Shown here one piece after another: positions 1 to 36,076 of a stretch of 36,076 bases of DNA. This stretch comes from Chiloscyllium plagiosum. Lineage: Eukaryota. The translations under genes and the position numbers were made by a program. Below the pieces are notes generated by a model that was not told where the DNA came from, searched no databases, and saw only the letters and a list, made by a program, of their open reading frames with translations. Positions within the stretch are counted from its first letter, which is position 1. The number at the start of each line of letters is the position of its first letter. The DNA lies in the NCBI RefSeq assembly GCF_004010195.1, contig NC_057719.1, positions 24,244,279 to 24,280,354 on the forward strand, read 5' to 3'.

Positions 1-85
1 TGAAAAAGGGCTTATGCCCAAACTGTCGGCACTCCTGCTTCTTGGATGCTGCCTGACCTGCTGTGCTTTTCCAGCGCCACACATT
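1..85 (+). mobile_element. Penelope-like element terminal-repeat fragment
   Basis: AGGGCTTATGCCC...CTTGGATGCTGCCTGACCTGCTGTGCTTTTCCAGC is shared with copies at 25832-25920, ~22990-23080 (-) and ~6780-6860. Confidence 0.75.
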
Positions 86-830
86 TTGACAAACATTGAT
101 AGTAAAGTAAGTTGTGTAGAGAATACTAGGAGGCTACAAAGATATATGTTAATTGAATGGCCAAGGTTGTGCCAAATGAACTATGACTTGGGAAAGGTGA
201 AGTTTTCCATCGCAATAGATATAATATGCTTTTTTAAATTTTCTCAGTGGTGAGAGATTGTAAAACTCTGAGGTGCAGAAGGATCTTAGTGTTCTTGCAC
301 TGGAATCACAAAAAGTGACAGCAAGTAATTGAGAAGGAGAAAAACATCAGTAATCAAAAGGGAAATTGAATACAAAAGTAGAGCTTATGCTTCAGTTATA
401 CAGGGCAGGATTGAAGCTTCATCTGGAATATTGTGCACAGTGTTTGTCTCCATTTTAACAAAGGATGTATGCATTGGAGACAGTTCAGAGCAGGTTTACT
501 AGACAAATCCCCTCAACTGGCAGGGTGTCTTATGAGGGAAGTTTGGATAGGCCAAACCTGTATCCACTGACGTTCAGAAGAACAGGCAACATGATCAAAA
601 TATCCTGAGATGTCTTGACAAAGTTCCACCATAGTTGGTACTTTATGCTGCTTAGAGTTATAACTGGTGCAAGGGGAGTTGGTAGTGTCCTAGGTCTAAT
701 CATCAGCTGCTTCATCAAAAACCTTCCCTCTGTCATAGGGTCCAATTTCCACAATACTTTTTGTTTAAATAGGAAATTAGTTAATTTGTGGAATTTAATA
801 AGTAGATTTCTGTTCGAGCCCTATGCAGAT
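86..830 (+). mobile_element. Degraded CR1-clade LINE 3' fragment
   Basis: Remnants of the CR1 RT C-terminal region (CTGGAATATTGTGCACAG, ACAGTTCAGAGCAGGTTTACTAG, TATGAGGGAAGTTTGGATAGG), similar to other CR1 copies in the window. Boundaries are approximate. Confidence 0.7.
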
Positions 831-1345: not shown

Positions 1346-2101
1346 TAGTTTCAGAATTTGAAGTTTTGATCTGAAAACAGACTTGATTTATACACAGGTG
1401 AGGCTATTGTTGCAACATTTGCTGAAATCAAAACACAGTAAAGGAGAAGAGAAAGACCTTTACCTCGTTGCCCTAATCCTTCTGCAGTTTTTTTGTAGTG
1501 ATCAGAATATTTGCAAGCCATGCTAAGTCACTTCAGAGGGCAAATAAGAGGCAACTCCTGATAAGAATTGCTAGTTCCTGTTCTAAAATATATTGATGAA
1601 GCAGTTAGATATTTGTAACAAGACAAGCTTTGTCTCCCCATTTCCAAATTATTTTTAACTAAGTTCAAGGTCTTAAAATTAACAAAGTGGCATCTCACAT
1701 TCAAGATCTCTGGATTATTTGTCCAGTAATATATACTATTCAAGCATTTGACATCGTTTTCTGAGTTCTGCTTTGAATGGAGTATGTATCTTAGTTTGTA
1801 TGAATATCTGTTTCTGACCAAATTAAAGTCAATATTGTTTTTATAATGCTTAGATATTTTTAGCAACTACTTAAATGAGAAAAAAAATCCCCGATAGCTG
1901 ATGTTTACCTTCAACATTGCTACATCGATAGGTGCATGCTGGATTTGAATTAAGAATGTGATACAATAGATCCAGTTTACAATATTATAAAAGCAGATGA
2001 TTGTCTTTCCATTAGTGATACTTCAATGTAAATGATCAATCATGTGCACAGTACACTGCTGATCTTCAAATTCTGAATAACTTATTATCCAATTAACTTA
2101 G

Positions 2102-2617
2102 GTGCCTGGTTATTGATGAAGCAGATCGCATGGTTGAAAAGGGACATTTCGCAGAATTGTGTCAGCTATTGGAAATGCTGCAAGACAAGGAATACCATCC
2201 AAAAAGAAGAATCTTCATATTTTCTGCAACTTTAACCATGGCTCATCCGGCTCCTGCAAGAATACTGGGAAAGAAGAATGTCAAAACAATAAATACAGAA
2301 ACAAAATTAGAAGCCCTGATTCAAAAAGTAGGCATCAAAAGAAAACCAAAAATAATAGATTTATCCAGGAAGGAGGGTACAGTTGAGACTCTCACTGAAA
2401 CTAGGATCCACTGTGAAATAGAAGAAAAAGATGTCTACCTATATTATTTCCTGCTTCAGTATCCAGGCCGAACAATGGTCTTTGCAAATAGCATAGATTG
2501 TATCAAACGTCTGAACTCATTGCTCACTATCCTAGAATGTAATCCACTGCCACTGCATGCAAATATGCATCAGAAACAGAGGTTGAAGAATTTAGAAAGG
2601 TTTTCTGAAAGAGAGAG
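2102..2617 (+). CDS. DDX24: DDX24 coding exon with DEAD (motif II), SAT (motif III) and motif IV
   Basis: ttag| acceptor and |gtaag donor. Translates CLVIDEADRMVEKGHFAEL...IFIFSATLT...YPGRTMVFANSIDCIKRL...LHANMHQKQRLKNLERF. Phase fits both neighbouring exons. Confidence 0.97.
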
Positions 2618-3149
2618 GTAAGTTTCTAAATCTAAGAAAAAGTAAACTGAATGAACCTCCCAGAACTGTTAAATTTTCTTGGGAGTTGTGTTAGCAGTTT
2701 ATAAATGCTGTTTACTATTGAAATGTTGACTGCTTGGAGGGAATTTCTATACATGCATCTGGATAGCTGTTTGCAAAGTAGTTTCCTGGCAGTGGAGAAT
2801 TACATTTGGGGCTAAACCATATGGACATGATAGTGACTAACCAAATTTGTACTGGATAATGGCCATGGAATAGTCAAAATGGTCAGGTCATAAAAAGGAA
2901 ATAAATTGCGTGTGACAATAACGTACATTGTTTCTCAATAAGTTTCACATTTTCATTTTGGGATTTAATTAGAGCAAATTTAATAGTGAATTTGAATCCA
3001 GTAAGTGTAAATTTTATGTTGGGGAATATCAAAAAGGAACCTGTTTTTGGCTGGTTGAAAGGTAATGCTTTTGTTGCAAAACTTGTTGTGGAAACTTTGA
3101 CGTTCAGTCCAGATGTTTTCATTAGCTTGTCTTTCTTATTATATTTCAG

Positions 3150-3225
3150 TTGTGTTTTATTAACCACTGATGTTGCAGCTCGAGGTCTGGATATTCCAAA
3201 TGTACAGCATGTTATTCATTATCAG
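3150..3225 (+). CDS. DDX24: DDX24 coding exon (motif V)
   Basis: tttcag| acceptor and |gtgag donor. Translates CVLLTTDVAARGLDIPNVQHVIHYQ. Confidence 0.96.
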
Positions 3226-3485
3226 GTGAGACTGAAAGTGAAATCTGAATGCTTGCTTGGATTTCGTTTGGAATTATCTATGGTTATGAACATTTATAAA
3301 TAAATCATATGGTGAATAATACCAAATTGCAATAAGTTTGACAATTGTATCAAAGTTCCTCCTTGTTGTTTTAACGGTAACTAAGATAAAATACAAGTAT
3401 GACTTTGGTACACCAAGTAACAGACATGATTCAAATCCAAAATCAATTTTATCCTAATTTAAGATTAATATGCCTTTTTTAATAG

Positions 3486-5994: not shown

Positions 5995-6262
5995 GTAAGT
6001 ATTTACAAACAGTTTAATACTTTGGCCCAAAATTTGTATTAACAATAGTCACGGTATAGATAATCTGGTAAAAGATGCATATGAACAGACAGTAACAAAT
6101 TGGATCTTAGCGGTGCATTATCTCCTTGCCAAGCAGTATTGTACGCTTTCTAGATTATTAGGTTAACATTGAACCAGTTAATTATTTAGGGAAACCAATC
6201 ATTTCACAGCCCCTCATCATTGTTATTTTTACCTCCTTCCCATTTCAAGCAGTTTGATCAAG

Positions 6263-6865
6263 TTATTGATGTCTGTTGCTCTTGATGTGGTCTCTTCTAC
6301 ATCGGGGAGACAGGACGCCAACTCCAGAGAGTTTCCGGGAACATCTCTGGGTTACACACACCAAACAACCCCACTGTCCTGTGGCTGACCACTTCACTGC
6401 CCCTCCCACTCCACCAAGGACATGCAAGCCCTGGGCCGTCTCCACTGTCTAATCTATGCCACCTGACAACTGGAGGAAGAACGCCTCATCTTCCTCCTTG
6501 GGACCCTTCAACCACACAGCATCAACAATCGACTTCACTAGTTTGTGCATCTTACCTCTTCCCCTCAACCCCAACCACGACCACCACCACCACCACCTCA
6601 TCTCAGATCCAACCCTCCAACTCGGCACTGCCCTCTTGACATCTTCCTTCCCACCTATCCACTCTGCCCTATTATCCCCCCACACCTACATCTACCTATC
6701 GCTTTCCCAGCTATCTTCCCCCACTCCACTTCCACCCTCCTATTTATTCCACCCTTTTCACCCCCTACCCCCAACATTCATGACGAATGGTTTACACCCA
6801 AAACATCAGCTTTCCTTCTCCTCAAACGCTGCCTGACCCGATCTGCTTTTCCAGTATCACACTGG
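6263..6865 (+). mobile_element. Penelope-like element 3' fragment (GIY-YIG endonuclease remnant and terminal repeat) in a DDX24 intron
   Basis: Interrupted translation C.S*CGLFYIGETGRQL..FREHLW...PVADHF...KDMQALG...LEEERLIFLLGTLQPHSIN, then a C-rich tract and the terminal repeat. Confidence 0.85.
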
Positions 6866-8489: not shown

Positions 8490-8699
8490 CTATTTTGGTT
8501 TATTTGCTTTATAAAGTATGTCATAATGGCCTGGTTTGTAAAGTAGGTAAACTGAAGGTTTTGCTCCTTCAGGAAAGACATGATGATTAACTTCAGTGTC
8601 CGTTTTGTCCATATATTCCACTTGGATTGGTAAACTCAGTGCTTGCGTCAGCGCGGTGATATGAATGTGATCACTCTCTATAGCCATTGGTTCCACTTC
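8490..8699 (-). CDS. OTUB2: OTUB2 exon 6 (terminal, catalytic His loop)
   Basis: tattgtag| acceptor. Translates EVEPMAIESDHIHITALTQALSLPIQVEYMD...NHHVFPEGAKPSVYLLYKPGHYDILYKANKPK*, with TAG at 8492-8490. Confidence 0.95.
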   Translation of the reverse strand, partial: EVEPMAIESDHIHITALTQALSLPIQVEYMDKTDTEVNHHVFPEGAKPSVYLLYKPGHYDILYKANKPK

Positions 8700-9065
8700 C
8701 TACAATAGGGAAACTTGGCATTAGTAATTTTATACAATGGAAATGAAAGTTCTGTTTCTGCTAGACTTCAAGATGTGAAACATTGAAATTAACTACTCCA
8801 CCCAGCAATGTCCAAAGTCAGTCCTTTTTTAGTCAGAGACCCAGCAATGTGTGTCATCTGACTAAGTATTTTTGCACAGAAATCTCAGCATAATCATTTC
8901 TATGCAGGAATCAGAATTTACAAAAGAAATCAGCTGGCAATCATCAAAGAGAAAGAAGGAAAGCTATTATGTAGATTAAAGGTTAGAACTGGACAAATTA
9001 TCAAGAGAAAGAAAAGAGATTTCCATTCTATTCCTCATTATCCATCTTCCAAATTTGGAAGTTGG

Positions 9066-9250
9066 AATACATTCTCCCTATATCTGTGTGGGTTTCCTTT
9101 GGGTGCCCAGAGATCTGCAGGCTAGGTCGATTGGCCATGGGAATTGCAGGGATACGGTAGGGGGTTGGGACAGGGTCGATGCTCTTCAGAGGGTCAGTGT
9201 GGACCTGATAGGCTGAATAGCCTGCTTCCACACTCTAGGGATTCTCTGAT
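9066..9250 (+). mobile_element. HE1-type SINE, internally deleted 3' part
   Basis: TGTGTGGGTTTCC...GATTGGCCATG...TTCAGAGGGTCAGTGTGGAC...GCCTGCTTCCACACT is the reverse complement of parts of the SINE at 21017-21322. Confidence 0.8.
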
Positions 9251-10455
9251 TTTTATATCTATATCAGGTACAGTATGAGTATCCAAAGTGTTTTCAGGAA
9301 ATCATCACCTCTAAACAGGTGATATATAAAAATAATTGCACGTGGCAACTTTGTCTGTCCATTTAAACTCCAGCAATGTTATTAGTGCATATAAGTTCTC
9401 AAACAGTGACTAGCTAATCTCTTTGGGAATATATGTTAAGGAAGAAACATTAAGCCCTAGGAGAATTCTTCAAATAATACCAAAGATCTTTAGGATCTCT
9501 ATAAGAATGAGGAAAACTCATATCAAGCCCATTCTTGGGATTACTGTGCAAATCATGCTTCACAAACCATCCCTGACAACTCGTGAGCAAAACGAAAAGT
9601 TATTTGTCAATTTCAAAGATGACATTGTGAAAAATCCTCTCCACTCACTAAAGCAAGATCCAGGACACGAGTTATTTTTGTCACTTGGCAGATGTGAAAC
9701 TTGTCTTTCTGACAATATATCTGAACTTGCTTATGAGTAGAATAGCACAATAAAGGGCTGGAAACAACCACCTCCTTCCAATTAGCTGGTCCTAAAATAT
9801 AATATTTCTTTCCCACACTTCAAATCGCACTTCAAAGGTTTACCAACCACCTTAAAATCAGACATTCTCCCCTTTTACTGCGTGCCCAAGTAAGCTGAGT
9901 ATTGAAATGTTTAAAATTAGCCGTACCTAACTTTTATCAGAGTTTGGTTCAAAGTTCATTTTGATTATTAGTGTTTTACTTGAAAATAAGTAAATCCTAA
10001 ATAAGACTACACATTTGGCCAGTATAAAAAGCATAAGTGCTGAAATCATTTATCATCTACCTTAGCTTCATGACATTTTTTCCAAAAATATCATGCTCTT
10101 CCATTGATTAATGGTTGTCCACTTCCCAACCTTTTCTCTTATTCCATCTTTTGATATACCTATGTGATAGTTTAATTGAAACCTAGTGACATCCAGGTAT
10201 CTATATGAAATTTTAATTCTACTTTCAACTAATTGAAAAGCCGAAGTAAGGTTAGTCTAACATTACATCCAAATGATGGCGTCTTTTCTTTGGTAGTGTA
10301 CTGAACTGATTAATCCACATTAAGAGTTCAATACTTTTACTTCCAATTCAGCTAAATGAGCTGTTTATTCAGCAAGAAACATTTTTCTGTCCTGAGATTT
10401 TAAAGGGAAATTAATGTTCGGTAGATTAATCAACATAACCAATTCTGGAACTTAC

Positions 10456-10650
10456 CTGAGTGCAGAAATCTTTAACACTTACACCTCCCTCAAGGAAAAG
10501 CTCAAAGAACTCAGACCGTTTCTGCAAGTATGCAGATGTTAGCAGTCGAAGATATTGTACTAGGTGATCTGAAACACCATGGTCGTTGAAAGCAGCAAGA
10601 AGTTTTGAAACCGAACCATCTGTTTCCACCAGGTCAATCATATCCATAAA
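10456..10650 (-). CDS. OTUB2: OTUB2 exon 5
   Basis: ttctag| acceptor and |gtaagt donor. Translates FMDMIDLVETDGSVSKLLAAFNDHGVSDHLVQYLRLLTSAYLQKRSEFFELFLEGGVSVKDFCTQ. Confidence 0.95.
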
Positions 10651-11033
10651 CTAGAATCAGAGAACCAAATAGTGTCAATGCTATCTGCATCAATGCATAT
10701 TTTTGTAAAAAGCAACTATAGAAGTTCCTTAGCAAAATTACAACAGAAAATGTAGATGACATATTTTGATCAATAAAAATATTTCTTAATTAAAGGCCAT
10801 AACACTCCAAAACAAATGCAAACTAAAGCCATACCAGTGGACTTCTATTTAAAACAATTAGATCTGTGACTAATAGCTTGCACTAGAGGAAAGAGTTGCA
10901 GTATCTCAAATTCTGAGTAAGGGTTTGAAATTAATCCCTTGTTAATTACTTTATGCCATTCAGTCAAAAAGCACAAGCAACAAAAGTTTCAAATTTGTCA
11001 TTTCCTTCAATTCTTCTTAAATGAAATACTCAC

Positions 11034-11118
11034 TGTGGTGAATGAATTTTCAAATCTGCTTTCAGCAAATCCAGCAGATGAAAGTTCTTCTCGACTTCGC
11101 ATTAAATTCTTTCTAAGT
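11034..11118 (-). CDS. OTUB2: OTUB2 exon 4
   Basis: ttcattttag| acceptor and |gtgagt donor, 85 nt. Translates LRKNLMRSREELSSAGFAESRFENSFTT. Phases match both neighbours. Confidence 0.9.
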
Positions 11119-11419
11119 CTAAAATGAAAGCAATTCAGATAAGTAGCGATTAGCATTTAAACTAATACCAGAAACATTATTGAGAGGATTTTCACTAATT
11201 CCTATTTGTCAGAAAATCATCACACCTGTTTTATTGTTGGCTATTAGTATCTTCACAATGTGTTTTTAAAAAAATCCCTACAAAATTCAAAATCTTTGAC
11301 TTTCAGTAACTTCTAAATTAACAGTGCTCTTCCTCGCCAATTTCTTGATAATTCTGTTGTAACATTTTGAAATAGTACAGCAAAACCCATTAAGAGTTGC
11401 CACATTGAGATGTTATAAT

Positions 11420-11745
11420 AACCAAAAATATTTAGATTGTGCCTTTACCATTATAAAATGCCCCACAGAGCCTCATGATGCTCTGACAAAATAAATCACA
11501 TAAGGAGAGATTAGATCAGATCATCAATAGCTTGATTAAAGAGGTGAGCTTTAATGAGTGTCTAACAGAACGACAGTAAAGCAGATGCAAACAAGTATGG
11601 AGTAGGATTCCAGAGCCAACGGCATTGGTTGCTGAAAGTACCAAGAAACAATTAAAATCTGAGGTGCATAAGTGGCCCAAACTAGCTGAGAACAGACATG
11701 AGGGTTGTGGTGCTGGAAGAGATTACAAAGACAGTGAGAATATAA
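11420..11745 (-). mobile_element. Old L2-like LINE 3' fragment
   Basis: AGCTTGATTAAAGAGGTGAGCTTTAA...GATTCCAGAGC...GGAAGAGATTACAAAGA resembles recalled elasmobranch L2-type tails. Degenerate. Confidence 0.45.
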
Positions 11746-12045
11746 AGGAATCTGCTCAGCTATTTTCTTTCTGCCTGATATTAGAATGCATTCACACCAT
11801 CTCTGTTGATTGTATAAATTAAGATTCAGTGTCTATAAGGGGAGGTGGCACTCATTAAAAATAACTTGTGCACATGACTGCCTGCTTATATCCATACTGG
11901 AGAAAACGCAATCACTAATGTACTCTACTTTTAAAAACACAAATCTGAACTTATTTGCATCACTACCTTGTGTCCATACAACTTTTCACTCAAACTATTT
12001 TACCATAATACAATATTATTAGCAATGACCATAAAATAAACTTAC

Positions 12046-12164
12046 TTTTGTATTCCCTTTTTACTTCCAAGTAACGATTCCAAGTAAGCAAAGCTTAGTG
12101 CTCGATAAAAGCAGTTGCCATCACCAAGTGTTTTTCTGAAGTAGGCATATTTTCGACTAATATC
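12046..12164 (-). CDS. OTUB2: OTUB2 exon 3 (catalytic Cys)
   Basis: tttaaag| acceptor and |gtaagt donor. Translates DISRKYAYFRKTLGDGNCFYRALSFAYLESLLGSKKGIQ(K), with the OTU GDGNCFYRA motif. Confidence 0.95.
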
Positions 12165-14849
12165 CTTTAAAGTAAAAACTCACATTTAAGTTAACAAGTA
12201 CTTTCCAATTCAGTTCTTTCAAATTTAAGTCACATGCATGAAGTTTGCTGAAAACCTTTACCCAATGAAATCAGCATTGGTTTTCCAGCAATAAATGGAA
12301 AGTAGGCCTTTAGGAATTTTGTTGAAGGGTGTCTTGGCATGCATATGAAAAAAGCAAATTGTTATATCAGCAATTTTTTTTTAAGCCAAAGATGAACTGA
12401 GTATTTGGAAAGTATTTGGAAATTTCACATTAGAGTCACATTAAAAAAAAATTAGGTTGAAGTTTTGGTGTTGAATTATCAGTATGACAAATGATACATT
12501 TTGTTGAAGCTTTGTTAAATGGTTGGTTCATCATAAGTCAAGCTATTATGCTTATTAAATTTACAAACTGGCTGGACTAGAGAGTTGTTAATGACCTGTC
12601 CACATACCACACAAAGGTTTGTTGGTTTGATCACAGTGGTAATAAGCTTGTTAGCCAAATATATTATTTGAAAATATATATGATTATGCGATGTTTTAAA
12701 ATGAAGTCCTAACAATACCCTTCCAGGAGATGAGAGAAAAAGCTATTAGATAAATAATCTTAAAGGCTCAGGCAAGCATTGGAATGACAATCTGAAAAAT
12801 GCTGAGAGACCAGGAAAAACTACTCGAGAGTCATTTATAAAACATTATTAACTACAATTAATTTCTTTGCATAAGTTAGATAAAATTGTTCACTATTTTT
12901 AAATAAAGATCGCTTTTAATATATGACCATTTTCAAAGCTGAAAATGGTGTATGATTGAAAAATAATTAGTGAATGATACCTTAACAAAAGATATATCTG
13001 AGTCTTAAAATAATAACCAACATTCAGGAGGTTTGAGGAGCCAGGTTCTTATAAATCATACAAGTGATTTATAAGAACCAGTATTCAGGACTGAAAGATT
13101 TAAGAAAACAAAATGCAACAACCCAACACACTAAAAAGAAGGAAAACAGTTAAAACTGTAATTGTTTGGACAGCATCTGTAAAGGAAGATAATGTTTTAA
13201 GTATAAATAACTGGCAAAGTTATTACACCTGAGCACCTTACAAGTTCATAAGGTAGCCATCTGTACAATGTTCCAATTCTGACCATACCCAAAAAGTTAA
13301 ATCTTCTCTCTTCTTAGAAGCTGCTATACTTATTGTATGTTAAGAATCAACTTTCTTAAGCATATAAGTGTGACTAGGGGGACAGGCTGACTTTAGATGT
13401 CATAATATGTTAAAGATACAAGTTTGACTGTATATGAAGCACATGTGGTTTTTATATAAGTCCAGCAAGAATTCCAAGAGTGGATATTTTTGGCTGGGTG
13501 TCCATATTAACCAAAAGGTCAATGATACAAGTCTTTCTTTTAAAAATGCACTGCAGTTCTGATCGAGAGAAATGTACACATCCACTATGGGAATTGTATA
13601 ATCTATCCAGTTTCTGAAATCAGTCTGATCATAAAGAATGTGTAGAGTGACTTTGGGCATAATGTGTAGCCCATGAATTTCTTAAACTAGTAATTCATTC
13701 TTGGACTAGATTTTCAGTGCCCAACTAGGATGTAGGTCATATTATAATCTGTTTATACATACTATTGGGTAATTAAAATAAAGTCATGTGTCCATTTCAA
13801 TTGCAGTGTGTAGTGCATTGTTAGGTGTGTGTGTGTTTAAAAAAAAAAATCAGTGTTATCTAATCCAATACTTATTGACAGCTGCCCAAACAGAAAAGCT
13901 TTGGAGCACAGGCTGTTGGCCCACCAGCTTGGCAGAGGTGAACCTCTGAACATCCTGAAAAACCTGTTAAATAATTTAAGTGTACAATGACTACTACAAT
14001 GCCATGTTTACTGCATGTAGGACTAAACAAGATGCTATCAAACAATAGATTTCCAGAACAGTTTACAGGACAGAATTAAGAAATTAGGCACAATTTAACT
14101 TGTAAAGTTTAAATTTTGAAAAATGGCAGTATCATGACTCGCCCCACACGACTAATATACGCAGATACCAATCTGACTCACTCTATAGTTTTAGACTGTA
14201 GGCATTTTTGCACAGAGAATTAATATTCTTCTCACAGCTGTCCAAAAAGGTTAAAGACCTTAATATAACATTGCAGGCACATGTTGGTCTAGATGTTACA
14301 GTCGTAATGGTAAAACCGTTAAGAGTTCACTCTCAATTCACCTCTGAAAGTGAACTTCTGGATTGCACATGTGCAGACGAATGCAGAAATCCAAAAGTTG
14401 CTGTCAGTATTTGTACTCTCTAACTCCAGACAGCAATCAATGGAAAATCAACTGAAGTGACAAAAAGTTGCACTCTAAATGTAGTCTCACTTCCTACACT
14501 TTCTTGAATTAAGTGTAACTGAGTGTACTGATTTAATAATTAGTGCTATTCTTAGCAGCCCTGAAAACCTAATTTGATATTTGTGGAGTATTAAATTTGT
14601 CAATAACAAAAATGATTTTTGAATCTGTTTTTAAATGTTCATCTTTATTTTAGTTTCTACCTTAAACTAAAAGTGAAGATTATTAATAGGTTTCTACTTT
14701 CTGGTTTGCCAATGTGATTGGCTCTTTACCTGCCCGCTGCTGCCAGCCAAAACATAATTGTGACCAGCTAGCTGTTTTAAAGGAACATTGGCAAAGAAGA
14801 AAACCACATTAAAAAGATCTTACCAGGGCAATAATGAGGGAACGTCTGG

Positions 14850-19379: not shown

Positions 19380-19530
19380 CGTGCACTGAGATGCAGCACG
19401 GAGCCCGCGATTGACACATTGCTCAGGAGGGAGACGTCACTGGCCCCGCCTACCCGACTGCAGGAAGTGACGTGGGGGACAAGTCACAATCAGTGGCCCG
19501 GCCCCCGCCGGGGGTCAGGTGGCGGGCCAT
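19380..19530 (-). promoter_or_regulatory. OTUB2 GC-rich proximal promoter: CRE-like site, GC box, ETS-CRE composite
   Basis: GACGTCAC at 19433-19440, CCCCGCC at 19444-19450 and GGAAGTGACGT at 19463-19473, just upstream of the putative first exon. CpG is much denser than in the flanks. Confidence 0.65.
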
Positions 19531-20412
19531 TCAGAGGATGAGGGGTGGGTGCAGGTGGTGCAATCAGAGCAGCGAGATGCTGAGGGAAAGGGAGGTGGTC
19601 CAATCAGCACAGCGGGAGGCTGAGTGAAGGGGAGATAGTCCAATCAGAGTAGCGATAGGCTACAGCGGAAGGATGGAGAGGCGATCCAATCAGAGCAGCG
19701 CAAAGTTGAGGTGTGGGAAGAGGAGGTCCAATCAAGAGGCTGGAGGGGGTGGAAAGAGTGGTCCAGTCAGAGCCGCGGGAGGCTGAGCGGTGGGTGTAGG
19801 CGGTCCATTCAGTGCAGTGTGAGGCTGAGGGAACGGGAGGCGGTCCAATTAGAACAGCGGAAGGCTGCGGGCAGGAGAGATCGTCCAATCAGAGCAGCTG
19901 GAGGCTGCGGGCAAGGATGATGGTCCAATCAGAACAGCGGGAAACTGCGAGCCGGGGAGATAGTCCAATCAGAGCAACGAGAGGCTGCGAGCCGGGGAGA
20001 TAGTCCAATCAGAGCAGCGGGAGGCTACAGGCAGGGGAGATGGTCCAATCAGAGCAGCGGGAGGCTGCAGGCAGGGGAGATGGTCAAATCAGAGCAGTGG
20101 GATGCTGCGAGCCGGGGAGATGGTCCAATCAGAACAGCGGGAGGCTGCAGGCAGGGGAGATGGTCCAATCAGAGCTGCGGGAGGCTTTAGACAGGGGAGA
20201 TGGTCCAATCAGAGCAGCGGAGGGCCGGGGAGATGGTCCAGTCAGAATAGCGGGAGGTTGCAGGCAGGGGAGATGGTCCAATCAGAATAGCGGGAGGCTG
20301 CAGGCAGGGGAGATGGTCCAATCAGAGCTGCGGGAGGCTTTAGACAGGGGAGATGGTCCAATCAGAGCAGCGGAGGGCCGGGGCAATGGTCCAATCAGAG
20401 CAGCGGGAGGCT
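19486..20412. repeat. ~40-bp minisatellite, ~22-24 units, each carrying a CCAAT-box motif
   Basis: Consensus TGGTCCAATCAGAGCAGCGGGAGGCTGCAGGCAGGGGAGA. CCAAT-like cores fall at 40-bp steps from 19805 to 20205, with 33-bp variant units. Degenerate at the left end. Confidence 0.95.
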
Positions 20413-20713
20413 CCGGGCGGCCGCGTTGGCGCCAGGAAGGTGGTCCGAAGATGTGTCCCAGTCCGTGTCTGTTGCTCGTGTTATTGAGCTGTTGGGATCA
20501 GTGTGTGTGTGAGAGACATTGTCAGAGGGCGGCATGTTCAGCAGCTTGCCATGTGGGCGACACTTGAGGTGTATTTTCAACCTTTATAACTCCTGTTCAA
20601 TGTATCAGACTGTCAGCATGGACAGGTTGGACTGAAGGGTTTGTTTAATGCTGTGCATCTCTGTGACTATATGGGACCAAGCAGATGATACAGGTTGTGT
20701 TGCAAAGGCACTT

Positions 20714-20891: not shown

Positions 20892-21470
20892 ATGGTACCA
20901 CTGCTAAAAGTACTGAAGTACGAAGCTGTTTTCAAGCTAAAAGTCACAACATTCACTAACTTGTCAAAGAACTATGCTGTAGCAAAGGAATTCAAGAAAA
21001 AAAACTGATGTGAGGATAGATTAGATTCCCTACAGTGTGGAAACAGGTCCTTCGGCTCAACCAGTCCACACTGACCCTCCGAAGAGTAACCCACCCAGAC
21101 CCATTTCCCTCTGACAAATGCACCTAAACCTATGGACAATTTAGCATGGCCAATTCACCTGACCTGCACATCATTGGACTGTGAGAGGAAACCAGAGGAA
21201 ACCCACGCAGACATGGGGAGAATGTGCAAACTCCACACAGACAGTCGCCCGAGGCTGGAATCAAACCTGGGACCCTGGTGCTGTGAGGCAGCAGTGCTAA
21301 CCCCTGAGCCACCATGCCACCCTAAAGGGAGAAGGAGATAGAAGGAGAAGGAATCCACTTCGTAGAAGATCTGAAAGTAATTACATATCAGAACAGGGAC
21401 CAGCCTGTGGCCTGATATTGAGAAACATGCATTAGAATGGGTCTTCAAAATCGTCAGAATCATCATCACC
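20892..21470 (+). mobile_element. pogo-family (Tc1/mariner) transposase N-terminal fossil, interrupted by a SINE
   Basis: MVPLLKVLKYEAVFKLKVTTF...NYAVAKEF lies before the SINE and RTGTSLWPDIEKHALEWV after it. These resemble the Brinker-like DBD and CENP-B HTH of POGK-type transposases. Confidence 0.6.
21017..21322 (-). mobile_element. Near full-length HE1-type tRNA-derived SINE (V-SINE)
   Basis: The minus strand begins GGGTGGCATGGTGGCTCAGGGGTTAGCAC (A box), then GGTTTGATTCC (B box), the V-domain TGTGTGGAGTTTGCACATTCTCCCC, and an (AATCT)n tail. Confidence 0.9.
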
Positions 21471-22324: not shown

Positions 22325-22930
22325 AGAATGCAAAGATGCCAACTCATCTACAAATTCCAAGACTTCAGACTTTGCTCCCCATTCTGCAACTGGATCCTTG
22401 ATTTCCTGATCCAGAGATCGCAATCAGTAAGGATAGGTGTCAGCACCTTCTCCATAATAATCCACAACATCAGTGCCCCACAAGGCTGTGTACTGAGCTC
22501 CTATACTTCTTATCCACACAACTGTGTGGCCAAATTCTGCTCTAATTCCATTTACAAGTTTGCTGACAACACCACGGCAATGGGTCGGATCTTAAACAAA
22601 GACAAAGCAATACAGGAAAGAGATAGAGAGCTTAGTGGCATGATGTAAAGACAACTACCTCTCCCTCAATGCCAGCAAAACAAAGGAGCTGGTCATCCAC
22701 ATCAGGAAGTGGGGTGAAGTTCGTGTCAATGGTACTGAGGTGGAGATGGTTGAGAACTTCAAGTTCGTAGGAGCAAATTTCATCAACAATCTGTCTTGGT
22801 CAATCCACATTGACACTACAGTCAATAGAGTACACCAACGCCTCTACTTCCTCAGAAAGCTAAGGAAGTTCGGTATGTCCACAAGGACTTTTGCCAATTT
22901 TTATAGATGTACCATAGAAAGCATCACAGT
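22325..22930 (+). mobile_element. Rex1/Babar-type LINE RT fragment
   Basis: Translates CNWILDFL..RSQSVRIG...APQGCVLS, IYKFADNTT, and VENFKFVG...LSWS.H...QRLYFLRKLRKFGMS...NFYRCTIES. Confidence 0.8.
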
Positions 22931-22954
22931 TTGGTTGAGTTTTTTTGAAAAGCT

Positions 22955-23450
22955 GAAAGTGAGGACTGCAGATGTAGAGATCAGAGTTGAAAAGTTTGGC
23001 CCTTGAAAAGCACAGAAGGTCAGGCATTATCTGAGGAACAGGAGAGTCAATATTTCAGGCATAAGCCCTTCATCAGGATTGTGCGGGGGAAAGGGGCTGA
23101 GCGATAAATAGGAGATTGGGGTGGAGGAAGGTAGTTGGGAAGACAATAGGTAGATGCAGGTGGGGGGTGATGGTGATAGGTCAGAAGGGAGGGTGGAGCA
23201 GATAGGTGGGAAGGAAGATGGACAGGTAGGACAGTTCAAGAGGGCGGTGCCAAGTTGGAGGGTTGGATCTGGAATGTGAAGGGGAGGTAAGAAAACTGGT
23301 GAGGTCGACATTGATGTTTGGTTGAAGAATCCCAAGGTGGAAGATGAATCGTCCGAGTGATTGGGGTGGCTTGGATTAGGCGGTGGAGGAGGCCCAGAAC
23401 TTGCTTGTCCTTGGCAGAATAGGAGTGGGAATTGAAGTGGTTAGTCACAG
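22955..23450 (-). mobile_element. Penelope-like element 3' fragment with terminal repeat
   Basis: The minus strand encodes NHFNSHSYSAKDKQVLGLLH... and is homologous to 6263-6865. It carries CTGATGAAGGGCTTATGCCTGAAA at 23076-23053. Confidence 0.85.
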
Positions 23451-23519
23451 GGCTATCTGGTCGTGTTGGATGAGAATCCTAATGCTCTCACTACCTGACA
23501 TCTCATGTTAAAGTGGCTG

Positions 23520-24769: not shown

Positions 24770-25032
24770 AAGATTAGATTACTTACATTGTGGAAACAGG
24801 CCCTTCGGCCCAACAAGTCCACACCAATCCACCGAAGTGCACCCACCCAGACCCATTCCCCTACGTTTACCACTGTACCTAACACTATGGGCAATTTAGC
24901 ATGGCCAATTCACCTAACCTGCACATTTTTGGACTGTGGGACGAAACCGGAGCACCCGGAGGAAACCCACACAGACACGGGGAGAATGTGCAAACTCCAC
25001 ACAGTCAGTCGCCTGAGGCGGGAATTGAACCC
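24770..25032 (-). mobile_element. 5'-truncated HE1-type SINE
   Basis: High similarity to 21017-21270, including the agattagatt tail. Ends at the B box (GGGTTCAATTCC on the minus strand). Confidence 0.9.
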
Positions 25033-25723
25033 AAGAGGTCACAAGATGACAATCAGGAGTTCAGGTTAGACTTCGATAGCATGTCATAGAGTCAAAGAGA
25101 TGTACAGCACAGAAACAGACCCTTCAGTTTAACTCATCCATGCCAACCCGATATAACCTGATCTGGTCCCATTTGCCAGCACTTGCTGCATATCCCTATG
25201 CACCCTTCCTATTCATATACTCATCCAGATGCCTTTTAAATGTTGTAATTGTACCAACCTCCACCACTTCCTCTGGCAGATCATTCCATACATAAACCAC
25301 CCTCTGTGTGAAAAGGTTACCCCTTTTATATCTTTCCCCTCACACCCTAAATCTCTGCCCTCTAGTTCTGGACTCCACCACCCCAAGGAAATGACCTTGT
25401 CTATTTATCCTATCTATGTCCTACATGATTTTATTAACCTCTGTAAGGTCCCCCCTTCAGCCTCCGACGCTCCAGGGAAAACTGCCCCAACCTATTCAGC
25501 CTCTCCCTATAGCTCAAATCCTCCAACCCTGGCAACATCCTTGTAAATCTTTTCTGAACCCTTTCAAGTTTCACAACATCCTTCCGATAGGAAGGTGACC
25601 AGAATTGCACACAGCATTCCAAAAGTGGCCTAAGCAATGTCCTGTACAGCCACAACACTCCCAACTTCTGTACTCAACACTCTGACCAATAAAGGAAAGC
25701 TTACCAAACACCTTCACTATCCT

Positions 25724-25920
25724 TGAGGAGAAAGTGAGGGCTACAGATGCTGGAGATCAGAACTGAAAATGTGTTGCTGGAAAAGCGCTGCAGGTCAGGC
25801 AGCATCCAAGGAACAGGAGAATCAACGTTTCCTGAAGAAGGGCTTATGCCCGAAACGTTGATTCTCCTGTTCCTTGGATGCTGCCTGACCTGCTGCGCTT
25901 TTCCAGCAACACATTTTCAG
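25724..25920. mobile_element. 197-bp palindromic Penelope-derived insertion with 15-bp TSD
   Basis: Inverted arms at 25763-25831 and 25852-25920 (one mismatch). CACCTTCACTATCCT is duplicated at 25709-25723 and 25921-25935. Confidence 0.9.
25828..25864 (+). ncRNA. Candidate minimal type I hammerhead ribozyme motif
   Basis: CTGAAGA-A-GGGC(TTAT)GCCC-GAAA-CGTT has both conserved core boxes, stem II and a palindromic ACGT stem III. Stem I is weak in this copy. Confidence 0.55.
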
Positions 25921-27503
25921 CACCTTCACTATCCTATCTACCTGCGACTCCACTTTCAAGGAAGTGTGAACCTGCACTGCAAGGTTTCTTTGTTCAGCAC
26001 ACTCCCCATTAAGTGTATAAGTCCTGGCCTGATTTGCTTTTCCAAAATGCAGCATCTCGCAATTTATCTAAATTAAACTCCATTTGCCACTGCTTAGCCC
26101 ATTGGCCCGTCTGATACAGTTCCCATTGTAATCTGAGGCAACCTTCTTCACTGTCCACTACACCTCCAATTTTGGTGTCATCTGCAAACTTACTAACTGT
26201 ATCTCCTATGTTCACATCCAAATCATTTATATAAATAATGAACAGCAGTGGACCCAGCACCAATCCTTGTGGCACTCCACTGGTCATAGATACTCTTAAA
26301 ATCATTTGGATCAAGTTAAACCAGATTGAATGAAATTAAAGGATACCAGCTACTTAATGGGGCACTTTAACAAAAATCAAATATTCAAATAAAAATTACA
26401 ATATTTAAATTAAATATGATATTAGATGGTAATAATACACTCCAGCCCTTGAGTGCACCACCCACAGAAAAGGTCAAGCATTCTGGTGCTGGACACTGTG
26501 TGCTTCCTCTTCGGGGCACTCAAGTATGGACATAGCTGCAGAAAAAGGGTGCAGTCGGGCCAAACAACTCCCTGACTGCACCCTCCCCACATCTCGGACA
26601 AAGTGACCGTGACACGCCTTAACCAACCCTTCCCCCTGCTCAACCTTCAAAACCGTGCAGTCCTCTCCCCCTCCTATTGGATCTCAGCCTGCTTTATTCA
26701 ATTCTTCTTTATAACTATGATCATTCCGTCAGCTAGTGAATGCAAACAGGACAATCCCAAGATATGAGCTGCTCATTTGGCCTTTGAACTGGCTGTGCTA
26801 GTCCATGAAGTTGTGACTGTTCCAGTGGTGATTTCACCTTTATTTCCTGTCGGCCCACATAACCCTGACCCCCTCCCCCACCCATCAAGATACTATCTAA
26901 TGCTCCCTTGAATCAATTCATTAGCCTAACCTCCATTTTCTATGCCAGAAATTCTGTTATGAAACTTATGAAGGGCTTACTCTTCTATACCCAATAAAAG
27001 GTTTGAATTTTGAAAACGATTCATGATAATACAACATTGTGAACAAATTGTATAAAAGGAAAAATATATATAGCTCACTGAAAACATATGGTGCAGTTGC
27101 CATGGTATCTGGGATAAGACAAGTAAAATATAAATAGAACAGGGCACAGAATAGGAACCACATCACAAAGAAAATGAAATGTAGAGGAAATCAAATAGTG
27201 AAAACAACCTAATATCTATGGGCAGGAATTTCTTTGTTTGAAACATAATATGGAGAAAAGTGGGAGGAACATCCATTAGGGACAGTTCAGGATTTCCCAC
27301 ACAATCACATTCTTCACAGCTTATTGTGTTATGCACATGTGGGTAAAACACCAAGTTTTGTTGGCAGGAAGTTCTGAAGCCTTCTGCGACCATCTTGGCT
27401 CTAATGTGCAGACGGTATGTTTGAAAGATATCGAGAAGCACTTAACTCTGTGCATCCCAGAAGCATCTCTTAACTTCACCTCCACCCAGAGACCAGGCAA
27501 TGA

Positions 27504-28330: not shown

Positions 28331-30357
28331 TCACAGATGTAATTTTAGACATTTCTGAAAAGGCCTCTTTTGCTATTCTTCCAAGTATTACAGAGGAGAT
28401 AATCCACAACAAATGACTTTCCCAGTAAGTAGTTAAAATGCCGTTGGGATCTTACGTAGGTGATGAGACCCTGCTAATAAATTGATGTAGCTGCTGTTTG
28501 ATTTGGGTAGGTGCCTTCACCACCCAGCAAAATGCGCTGGTAATGGGCCCAAGAGTAAATGTACCACAGTCCAATTTATCTCCGCTGCTGCCTATGTTTT
28601 ATTGGCCAGTGAGAGTTAAAATCTGAACTCCTGTTTTTCTGATAAATAGTTCATAATATTCATGTACATGATTCCAAAAAACAACCATATTTCCATCAGT
28701 TGTAAACTGTAGCAATAGAGAAGGTTGCGTTAACTTTGAATATTAAATAAGTATAATTTGATACAAGACACAACTGTAATGAAATGTTTGTGAATCAAGT
28801 GAATAGCTTTGGTATGAATTGAACAAATTGACCCAGGTATGACCTATGGAGTTTATTTATAAGGAACGCAATAATAGTGCGCTTGACATTATGGTCACAA
28901 TGAACTTGAGAACTAACTACCACCAGCTCAAAGAAATGTTTTATAGGATTATCAAGAATTTGACCTATTGTTCTATTATGCACATCATACATATCATTCT
29001 GGAGATATTTCGGTACACTCCCCAAGTAACTCAATTACAACTTATTAACTGCAACTGACTCCTTCATGTGGCTGCATTCTTCAACCTGGAAAAAAGTGTT
29101 CTTTGCCGATTTTTAACTCAATTAAATTATTTTGAATGGCGGTAGAGGTACTTAATAATTTCGTCAGATTTCAAATTATTCCATGTTAATCATTGGAATT
29201 GTTGATATGCCAACTTGCTTAACAGGTTAATTTGGCCAAGTAATGCAACTGCACATCTCAACTCAAATGAGAAGAAATGGATTGTGAAAGGTCCCTGATA
29301 GATTATCTATTGTATGTTGCCAGGCACTTCATGCAAAGCTGAAAGTTGTATTAAAGTTATTCAATGTATTCAAACTTGAACTGAGCATTGTTTCGTCTGT
29401 TTTAACAGAAGTTATTTTCTCATTTCTCTCTCCATAATCTTCCTTGGAGAAGTCAAGCTTGTTTTTTGGGCCTACTATAGAAAGAAAAATGTAAAATCTC
29501 AATTGCTATTATCGTGTCCCGGTACAGTCTGAATGTCAAATTAATTTTTATATTTTAAAACTGACCACAAAGGCTGAAAATGATGGCCACCTGATGATCC
29601 AACAGGTTTGGGAAATTTAGGGATTGGAACCCCTCCTCTATCTCAAGAAAGTAACAAAAGGAACCTTTTGGACTGAATTGGTACCAATGCACTTTCATGA
29701 AACTAATTCAAAAGGTTTATATCAATTGTATGGGTCTTTCAAATTAAAATGCAACAATCTTTTCAGGTTCTCAAGACAAAATCCACATCACAGGATTTAT
29801 AATGGACCTAATGACCCAAATTATTTGGAAAAGGATTCTGGACTTGTAGCAGGTGAAAGAAAGCCATTTTCTCTACTTGCTTTTAAAAATCCAAGAAGCT
29901 GCCTTGAGTACATAGTGCCATTCAAAAATCCATTGAAATAGCTGGAAGTCATCTAAGCAGCCAAGGTAAAAAATAGCTATGCTTTGAAAGTGGAAGAAGG
30001 ATTTCTCCCTGTTCATGTTTACCTGAGGGGAAAGAACATGAATTTTAAAAAAGTAAAACTAGAAAATGAACATATGGGTCATACTGGATTTCAATTTACA
30101 AGTATACCAGAGAAGTCAGACCAATTTCCATTATTTCCATGTTTTAGTTCTGGAAATTTGACTACTGTACCAGAAGCCTTGCAGCTTACGAAGAGTCCAA
30201 TGTTTTACAAGATCTTCACAACTACAGCATCAACTCACCTAAGCCACAAAAGACACTGAAGTGCTAAATTATAATTATTGTTTAACTTTCATCTGTATCT
30301 ATATTTGTGTATGTGAGATAACTGAATGAAAAATTATATTTTAAGTGTCCAGGGTAA

Positions 30358-35800: not shown

Positions 35801-36076
35801 TACCAACGCCATAGGTATAAAGAGGGATAGAGATGTAAGGCAGGATTTCAGGGAGCTAGGGTGGAAGCTGAGAGCTAGAACAAACAGTTGTTATCTCTGG
35901 TTTGTTACCCATGCCACATGATAGTGAGGCAAGGAATAGGGAGAGATATCAGCTGAACATGTGGCTGCAAGGATGGTGCAGAAGGGAGGGTTTCAGGTTC
36001 TTGGATAATTGGGGCTCATTCTGGGGAAGGTGGGACTTGTACAAACAGGATGGTCTTCACTTGAACCAGAGGGGTA
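35800..36076 (+). mobile_element. CR1 ORF1 SGNH-esterase fragment (runs off the window)
   Basis: FRELGWKLRART...QLNMWLQGWCRREGFRFLDNWGSFWGRWDLYKQDGLHLNQRG contains the DGLHLN block V of CR1 ORF1 esterases. Confidence 0.85.

Follow-up and report, generated by a model that had tools for sequence, protein, structure and literature searches.

The 197-base insert at positions 25724-25920 of the window (the whole 36,076-nucleotide stretch of Chiloscyllium plagiosum DNA analyzed here) belongs, as an ordinary case, to a known class: insertion products of Penelope-like elements (PLEs) that are truncated and inverted. It quite probably arose as a one-off, dead-on-arrival insertion of an endonuclease-bearing (EN+) PLE of the Neptune/Nematis type, by way of two nicks and two joined cDNAs. 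The first of the origins offered in the original prediction, an extremely 5′-truncated and inverted PLE insertion, is supported by this result, and a tail that had been overlooked gives the insert its textbook form.

Positional analysis demonstrated two identical 15-mers (15/15 bases) at 25709-25723 and 25921-25935, the left copy consisting of CR1 sequence. In the whole window, outside the tandem array at 19.4-20.5 kb, this pair is the sole perfect 15-mer repeat at a spacing of 51-400 bases. The 197 bases between the copies, and the perfect 15-bp duplication around them, had both been predicted and were confirmed by position and identity. The first base of the right duplication copy is also the family majority base, which leaves an uncertainty of 1 base in the boundary (read row 25762; loose ends at 25921). 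Within the insert, two inverted arms of 69 bases each (25763-25831 and 25852-25920) enclose a loop of 20 bases (25832-25851). The arms differ at one of their 69 positions, as predicted, and the mismatch was located at 25789. Arms and loop, of which alone the insert had been said to consist, add up to 69 + 20 + 69 = 158 of the 197 bases. The remaining 39 bases (25724-25762, minus strand) lie outside the left arm in a single copy, so that the left arm begins 39 bases inside the insert and no inverted repeats were found at its very termini. These 39 bases were identified as an inverted Penelope tail because the tailed copy near 23 kb continues the arm into them (22955-23078). No ORF sequence was found inside the 197 bp, in agreement with the claimed lack of coding sequence; the insert has no RT-EN ORF of its own and is a stub.

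In a self-search of the window, the insert was the sole long short-range inverted repeat. Its hairpin was computed at −142.7 kcal/mol (z −20), and none of 200 shuffles was equally stable. Rfam models of the miRNA type also hit the insert (MIR528, 33.5 bits; cut-off, 62); these were generic hairpin matches far below the cut-offs and were rejected.

The insert is composed of 108 inverted bases with the tail and 89-92 direct bases without a tail, joined via a 3-base overlap. The left arm, an inverted pLTR end on the minus strand, stops at the hammerhead GAAA without a complete core, and no CUGANGA was found on that strand. The right arm is a direct pLTR end on the plus strand without a tail; it stops at about the point where two other copies in the window (1-87 and 6777-6864) stop. 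Both outer ends of the insert are element 3′ ends, one tailed and the other tailless. The overlap, TTC at 25829-25831, is the inversion junction and is assignable to either piece, as judged from family reads and from the sequences natively upstream of the core, which end in TTC (6.8-kb copy) or ATC (23-kb copy). The loop and the tailless arm are collinear. The tail end (25724-25740) is also similar to the family sequence directly upstream of the hammerhead core: each is pyrimidine-rich and ends in CCTCA. Such likeness could favor head-to-tail joins or clustering of 5′ ends.

The insert lies in a decayed CR1-type LINE fragment on the minus strand (25080-26335, bounds approximate). An RVT_1 domain was detected at 26012-26335 (E value, 8e-10), removal of the insert and of one copy of the duplication leaves the reading frame of the host uninterrupted at the site, and repeat-level read depth drops to single-copy level near 26335. 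The predicted location inside a CR1 is borne out by this RT-bearing LINE and its continuous frame, with the host taken by us to be CR1 by resemblance. Other CR1s have the duplicated target sequence once, and there the stretch appears about 3 bases longer (joints skip 209 versus 212 bases; loose-end consensus at 25924). Both duplication copies carry the shorter form; therefore, it was at this locus that the duplication formed.

Of the 127 open segments, 78 were scanned, and none of these gave an exon near the insert. Farther away, exons of a DEAD-box helicase, presumably DDX24-like (2097-3303, plus strand), converge with otubain (Peptidase_C65) exons (8493-12200, minus strand). The stretch 19520-20420 is a degenerate tandem array, rich in GC, in which CCAAT-like words recur and CpG is raised (o/e 0.46); it may sit at a promoter located upstream of otubain. 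A weak Latrotoxin_C Pfam match at 28798-29034 (minus strand; E value, 0.0075; 16.5 bits against a cut-off of 25) falls in a segment that looks non-coding and is probably a chance match among 78 segments. The segment at 35872-36075 (plus strand) is GDSL-lipase-like (E value, 4e-6, below cut-off) and is, we assume, probably a LINE ORF1 esterase remnant. Three related SINE-like repeats were observed at 24771-25031, 21018-21267, and 9069-9245, one of which directly adjoins the host CR1.

As judged by sequence, the arms derive from the terminal repeat of a PLE with an endonuclease, to which they are linked through older relatives at 71-84% identity. The window contains three such copies. The copy at 22955-23451 (minus strand) is older and non-inverted, comprises the tail, the 3′ UTR, and a GIY-YIG C-terminal remnant, and matches the insert at 84% (77 bases) and 79% (103 bases); core, arm, and tail form one uninterrupted run in it. 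A more distant older copy at 6256-6864 (plus strand), tailless and with a GIY-YIG remnant, matches the insert at 71% over 85 bases through its end sequence at 6777-6864. In both of these non-inverted copies, the end sequence follows downstream of the decayed coding remnant. The third, a related tailless end at 1-87 (plus strand), is cut by the window start and is 84% identical over 87 bases. None of the three is a fold-back of the insert's form, one of them being cut by the window start. The tailed copy lies beside or inside another LINE remnant (an ALKBH8_N-like Pfam match at 22644-23003), and no duplication of at least 7 bases was found around it.

When the coding remnants were searched with tblastn, the copy at 22955-23451 matched P0012 with an E value of 7e-8, and the copy at 6256-6864 gave E values down to 1e-16. 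A phmmer search with one coding remnant returned nine proteins, of which three repetitive ones were dropped before alignment and six were kept. A profile built from the six found 66 longer proteins, with PF26215 in many, PF00078 in several, and GIY-YIG (PF01541) in some. These related proteins, with RT, HTH, and GIY-YIG domains, match both window remnants (E values, 1e-16 to 6e-4). The two best profile matches bear the source names whale shark and zebra shark. A CX5CxxC motif precedes the GIY-YIG core in five of the six related proteins checked; the window remnants stop short of this region. A CX2-5CxxC motif between RT and GIY-YIG is a mark of the Neptune and Nematis clades (PMC8557442), and the source clade is likely Neptune/Nematis by this comparison of proteins. 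In the annotated protein P0013, the reading frame extends through the 3′ UTR, and the final residues look like a translation of the same hammerhead region, which suggests an identical layout in another shark.

Several searches with the same material were negative. Pfam did not recognize three pieces of the ORF remnants, a word search with one of the pieces gave no match, and a PDB sequence search returned only E values above 0.3. Pattern scans with a 22-mer found no loci in metagenome or viral contigs and one in bacterial genomes, and a 20-mer found 17 metagenome loci; none of the 18 loci matches beyond 18-29 bases, and they were dropped as chance hits.

Four of the 24 listed public sequencing runs were compared with 25040-26640 at 90% likeness. 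Organism A differed from the unique flank by one difference and one gap in 381 bases, and organisms B and C are relatives. The arm region was 5-6 orders deeper than the single-copy flank in all three organisms, as summed contig depth, which is not a copy number, and the depth of the tail region was below that of the arms; on the left arm, depth is confounded with ties between the two arms. The source family is very abundant. The RNA evidence comes from one poly(A) single-cell run. Run X21, of which 2% was read, showed no pile-up of starts or ends and had no reads on the unique flank; its library type is unable to show a cleavage site, and neither result enters the evidence. Among the 15 joints listed of about 1900, 14 were CR1 skips and one was a short internal skip; none of these 15 crosses the inversion, and among the pieces listed none spans the insertion. 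Among the 24 loose ends listed of about 4460, those at 25726, the tail end, comprised 305 RNA reads that depart into mixed sequence (agreement, 0.56), and those at 25917-25921, the tailless end, comprised 166-374 records per run from contigs and reads, also departing into mixed sequence (agreement, 0.38-0.49). Both outer ends of the insert are usual ends of the abundant family. Loose ends were also listed at 25829 (245 RNA reads into mixed sequence; agreement, 0.58), and family reads match from this position on. The loose ends at 25829 are ambiguous, because every native copy must depart from the reference there.

The base at 25824/25859 is common to both arms, and 77/79 and 26/28 RNA reads have the other base. 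The two arms sharing a minority base implies that they had the same source or were later homogenized. The insert is loosely supported by sequence as fairly recent: one change was found in 138 arm positions, with a 95% interval of 0.02-4%, and five CpGs are retained in a window with a CpG o/e near 0.2. The earlier description of the insert as young holds in this loose sense, the interval being wide, and homogenization of the arms, if it occurred, would make their identity overstate that youth.

A search with the hammerhead core pattern demonstrated a single match in the window and none in any of 100 shuffles, which upholds the proposal that the 20-nt loop and the adjacent bases form a hammerhead core. 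The core occupies 25832-25859 on the plus strand: C3-A9 at 25832-25838, an extra A at 25839, helix II at 25840-25851, G12-A15.1 at 25852-25855, and then C15.2, G16.2, U16.1, and U17, the last at 25859. It has the features of a minimal hammerhead, namely the CUGANGA and GAAA boxes, an extra base 9/10.1, G10.1-C11.1, and a palindromic C15.2-G16.2 without a loop. No Rfam hammerhead model matched at the insert. Helix I has 2 bp next to the core, and the native upstream sequence also looks weak; in minimal PLE hammerheads helix I has 4-5 bp, with a 2-bp case reported for D. virilis (PMC4209133). Position 17 is U, and the RNA reads have the base for C in the counts given above.

Folding predicted the hammerhead GAAACGUU to be paired with a probability of at least 0.996, and 25852-25859 to be paired with the antisense copy with a probability of at least 0.996, as expected from the suggestion that the hairpin sequesters GAAA. 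By computation, freeing the core would cost 14.8-18.1 kcal/mol, and a dimer helix would return about 3.5 kcal/mol; the folding prediction did not leave the core free to form a dimeric helix III. The minus strand lacks a core. Minimal PLE hammerheads have been described as showing no cleavage as single copies and weak cleavage as dimers (PMC4209133). The hammerhead of this copy is predicted to be inactive, locked by the hairpin, and the motif is most likely a passenger that is switched off.

The second option of the original prediction was a non-autonomous MITE- or retrozyme-like family. A non-LTR retrozyme spreading by self-cleaved circular RNA would, like the insert, be a short repeat without coding sequence that has a type I hammerhead motif, and retrozymes have been argued to derive from pLTRs (bioRxiv 10.64898/2026.07.22.740005). 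Against this, the insert has one core and an inverted rather than tandem layout, its ends are not at the cleavage site, and its motif is minimal, not canonical, with the core predicted to be paired. Membership in that class fails on the single core and the missing tandem, and we consider the reading extremely improbable.

For the preferred reading, we infer a route of two nicks and two cDNAs in which the hairpin was formed at insertion. A GIY-YIG enzyme would nick both CR1 strands 15 bases apart, and each nick would prime reverse transcription on a pLTR-bearing RNA. One cDNA would begin at the tail end, with 108 bases copied, and the other at the tailless start, giving a copy of 89-92 bases that extends across the core. 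After meeting, these cDNAs would anneal by TTC/GAA and be filled in, giving the hairpin and the 15-bp duplication. The whole length of the insert is accounted for in this way. The hammerhead would be the ordinary motif of the family, and its position about 90 bases from the element end would explain why it was included. Self-priming on an antisense template is favored for such inversions in PMC3846280, and a single tailed strand that folds back and primes itself was considered here and ranked lower. It would put the loop on the tailed arm, whereas here the loop is on the tailless arm; this collinearity, at one locus, makes two primed cDNAs appear the simpler explanation.

Random truncation would not lead one to expect a direct piece that begins 0-3 bases ahead of the core, and this counts against the preferred route. 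The template may instead have been a short transcript of about 130 bases starting just before the core, a SINE-like pLTR RNA rather than a partly copied full-length RNA. Both the onset of the direct piece, 0-3 bases upstream of C3, and the mixed loose ends at 25829 point in this direction. However, two of the three other window copies extend several hundred bases upstream, the third being cut by the window edge, and identical ends would result if RT stalled at the structured motif. A short template is compatible with two nicks and two cDNAs and is a tentative possibility.

Long palindromes are unstable, and an originally longer head-to-head palindrome could have lost its center asymmetrically through a later deletion at the TTC overlap. 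The 3-base overlap at the junction would fit such an event, and microhomology deletions have been reported in Penelope copies (PMC3846280). The direct piece, however, begins at 25829, where 245 family RNA reads also depart, which fits a usual start point; this argument is weakened because all native copies must depart there too. Overall, a later deletion is considered unlikely.

Another origin considered was descent from a fold-back master that already existed, a non-autonomous, MITE-like retroelement of which a Penelope enzyme would have made a full copy. The minus-strand transcript of such a master would end in a sense arm and tail, so it would carry start sites. The clean ends with a duplication and no coding part, the minority base common to both arms, and the finding that pLTRs alone can mobilize enclosed sequence in trans (PMC3846280) are in line with this origin, but the junction occurs in one of the four family copies of the window, with no second, and the start sites would lie buried in a 69-bp helix. 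A MITE-like fold-back family would also have its inverted repeats at the very termini, whereas the left arm here begins 39 bases in. Descent from a master appears improbable to us. We give an equally low rating to the fuller version, in which the hairpin would replicate as a fold-back retro-MITE of 197 bases. A Neptune-type enzyme would copy it in full, its inverted arm would silence its own hammerhead, and it would yield a 69-bp dsRNA against the family. If it were true, the dsRNA would target a family among the most abundant repeats of the genome. A MITE-like family copied as a hairpin found no support in the tests run, and we attach little credence to it.

As a single locus, the insert means little, being another dead end piece of an abundant repeat. 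It is nevertheless a clean, nearly unmutated record of how PLEs form inverted ends, a process that is still called unresolved in the available parts of the literature. Two separately primed cDNAs are favored over a simple fold-back by the placement of the loop, which is on the tailless arm, and by the overlap of 3 bases. This view of the route comes from one locus, at which a longer palindrome that later suffered a deletion would present the same picture, and a population of such stubs, rather than this copy alone, would bear on it. In a literature search of titles and abstract openings, with subscription literature mostly outside, no miniature fold-back stubs in sharks were found.

Among known systems, non-LTR retrozymes are likewise short, non-coding, and pLTR-related, with a type I hammerhead, but they are described as direct tandem repeats with at least two hammerheads, whereas the insert is a single inverted unit (PMC7229834; bioRxiv 10.64898/2026.07.22.740005). 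The minimal PLE hammerheads have the same core boxes, extra base 9/10.1, G10.1-C11.1, and palindromic C15.2-G16.2, with no loop 3, and solo motifs from truncated elements as well as pairs on opposite strands have been noted in metazoan PLEs (PMC4209133). The motif in the insert differs from those by its 2-bp helix I, by U at N17, where family reads mostly have C, and by a core predicted to pair with its own antisense copy. In vitro, Anolis Poseidon cut both strands and extended both, two start sites bracket its tail, and insertion was independent of hammerhead cleavage (PMC11167929). Poseidon belongs to another clade, the linker here pointing to Neptune/Nematis, and no reconstitution of inverted products was seen in the available text (PMC11167929).

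The closest likeness is to Pen2a_Av and Pen2_Av. A one-sided 39-bp tail, a head-to-head inverted copy, and a target-site duplication, the features of EN+ PLE insertions, were all found in the insert. Pen2a_Av and Pen2_Av have the same head-to-head inverted, 5′-truncated piece with a one-sided tail of 30-40 bp (PMC3846280; PMC8557442, legend to Figure 2), and they likewise have a junction overlap and a target-site duplication; the layout in these papers includes a shorter inverted pLTR and a duplication of 9-10 bp (PMC3846280; PMC8557442). The insert differs from the published units in its total length of 197 bp without an ORF or a full pLTR between the ends, in its duplication of 15 bp rather than 8-10 bp, and in its overlap of 3 bp rather than 15 bp. 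It is thus a miniature form of the "inverted pLTR plus tail" insertion already published.
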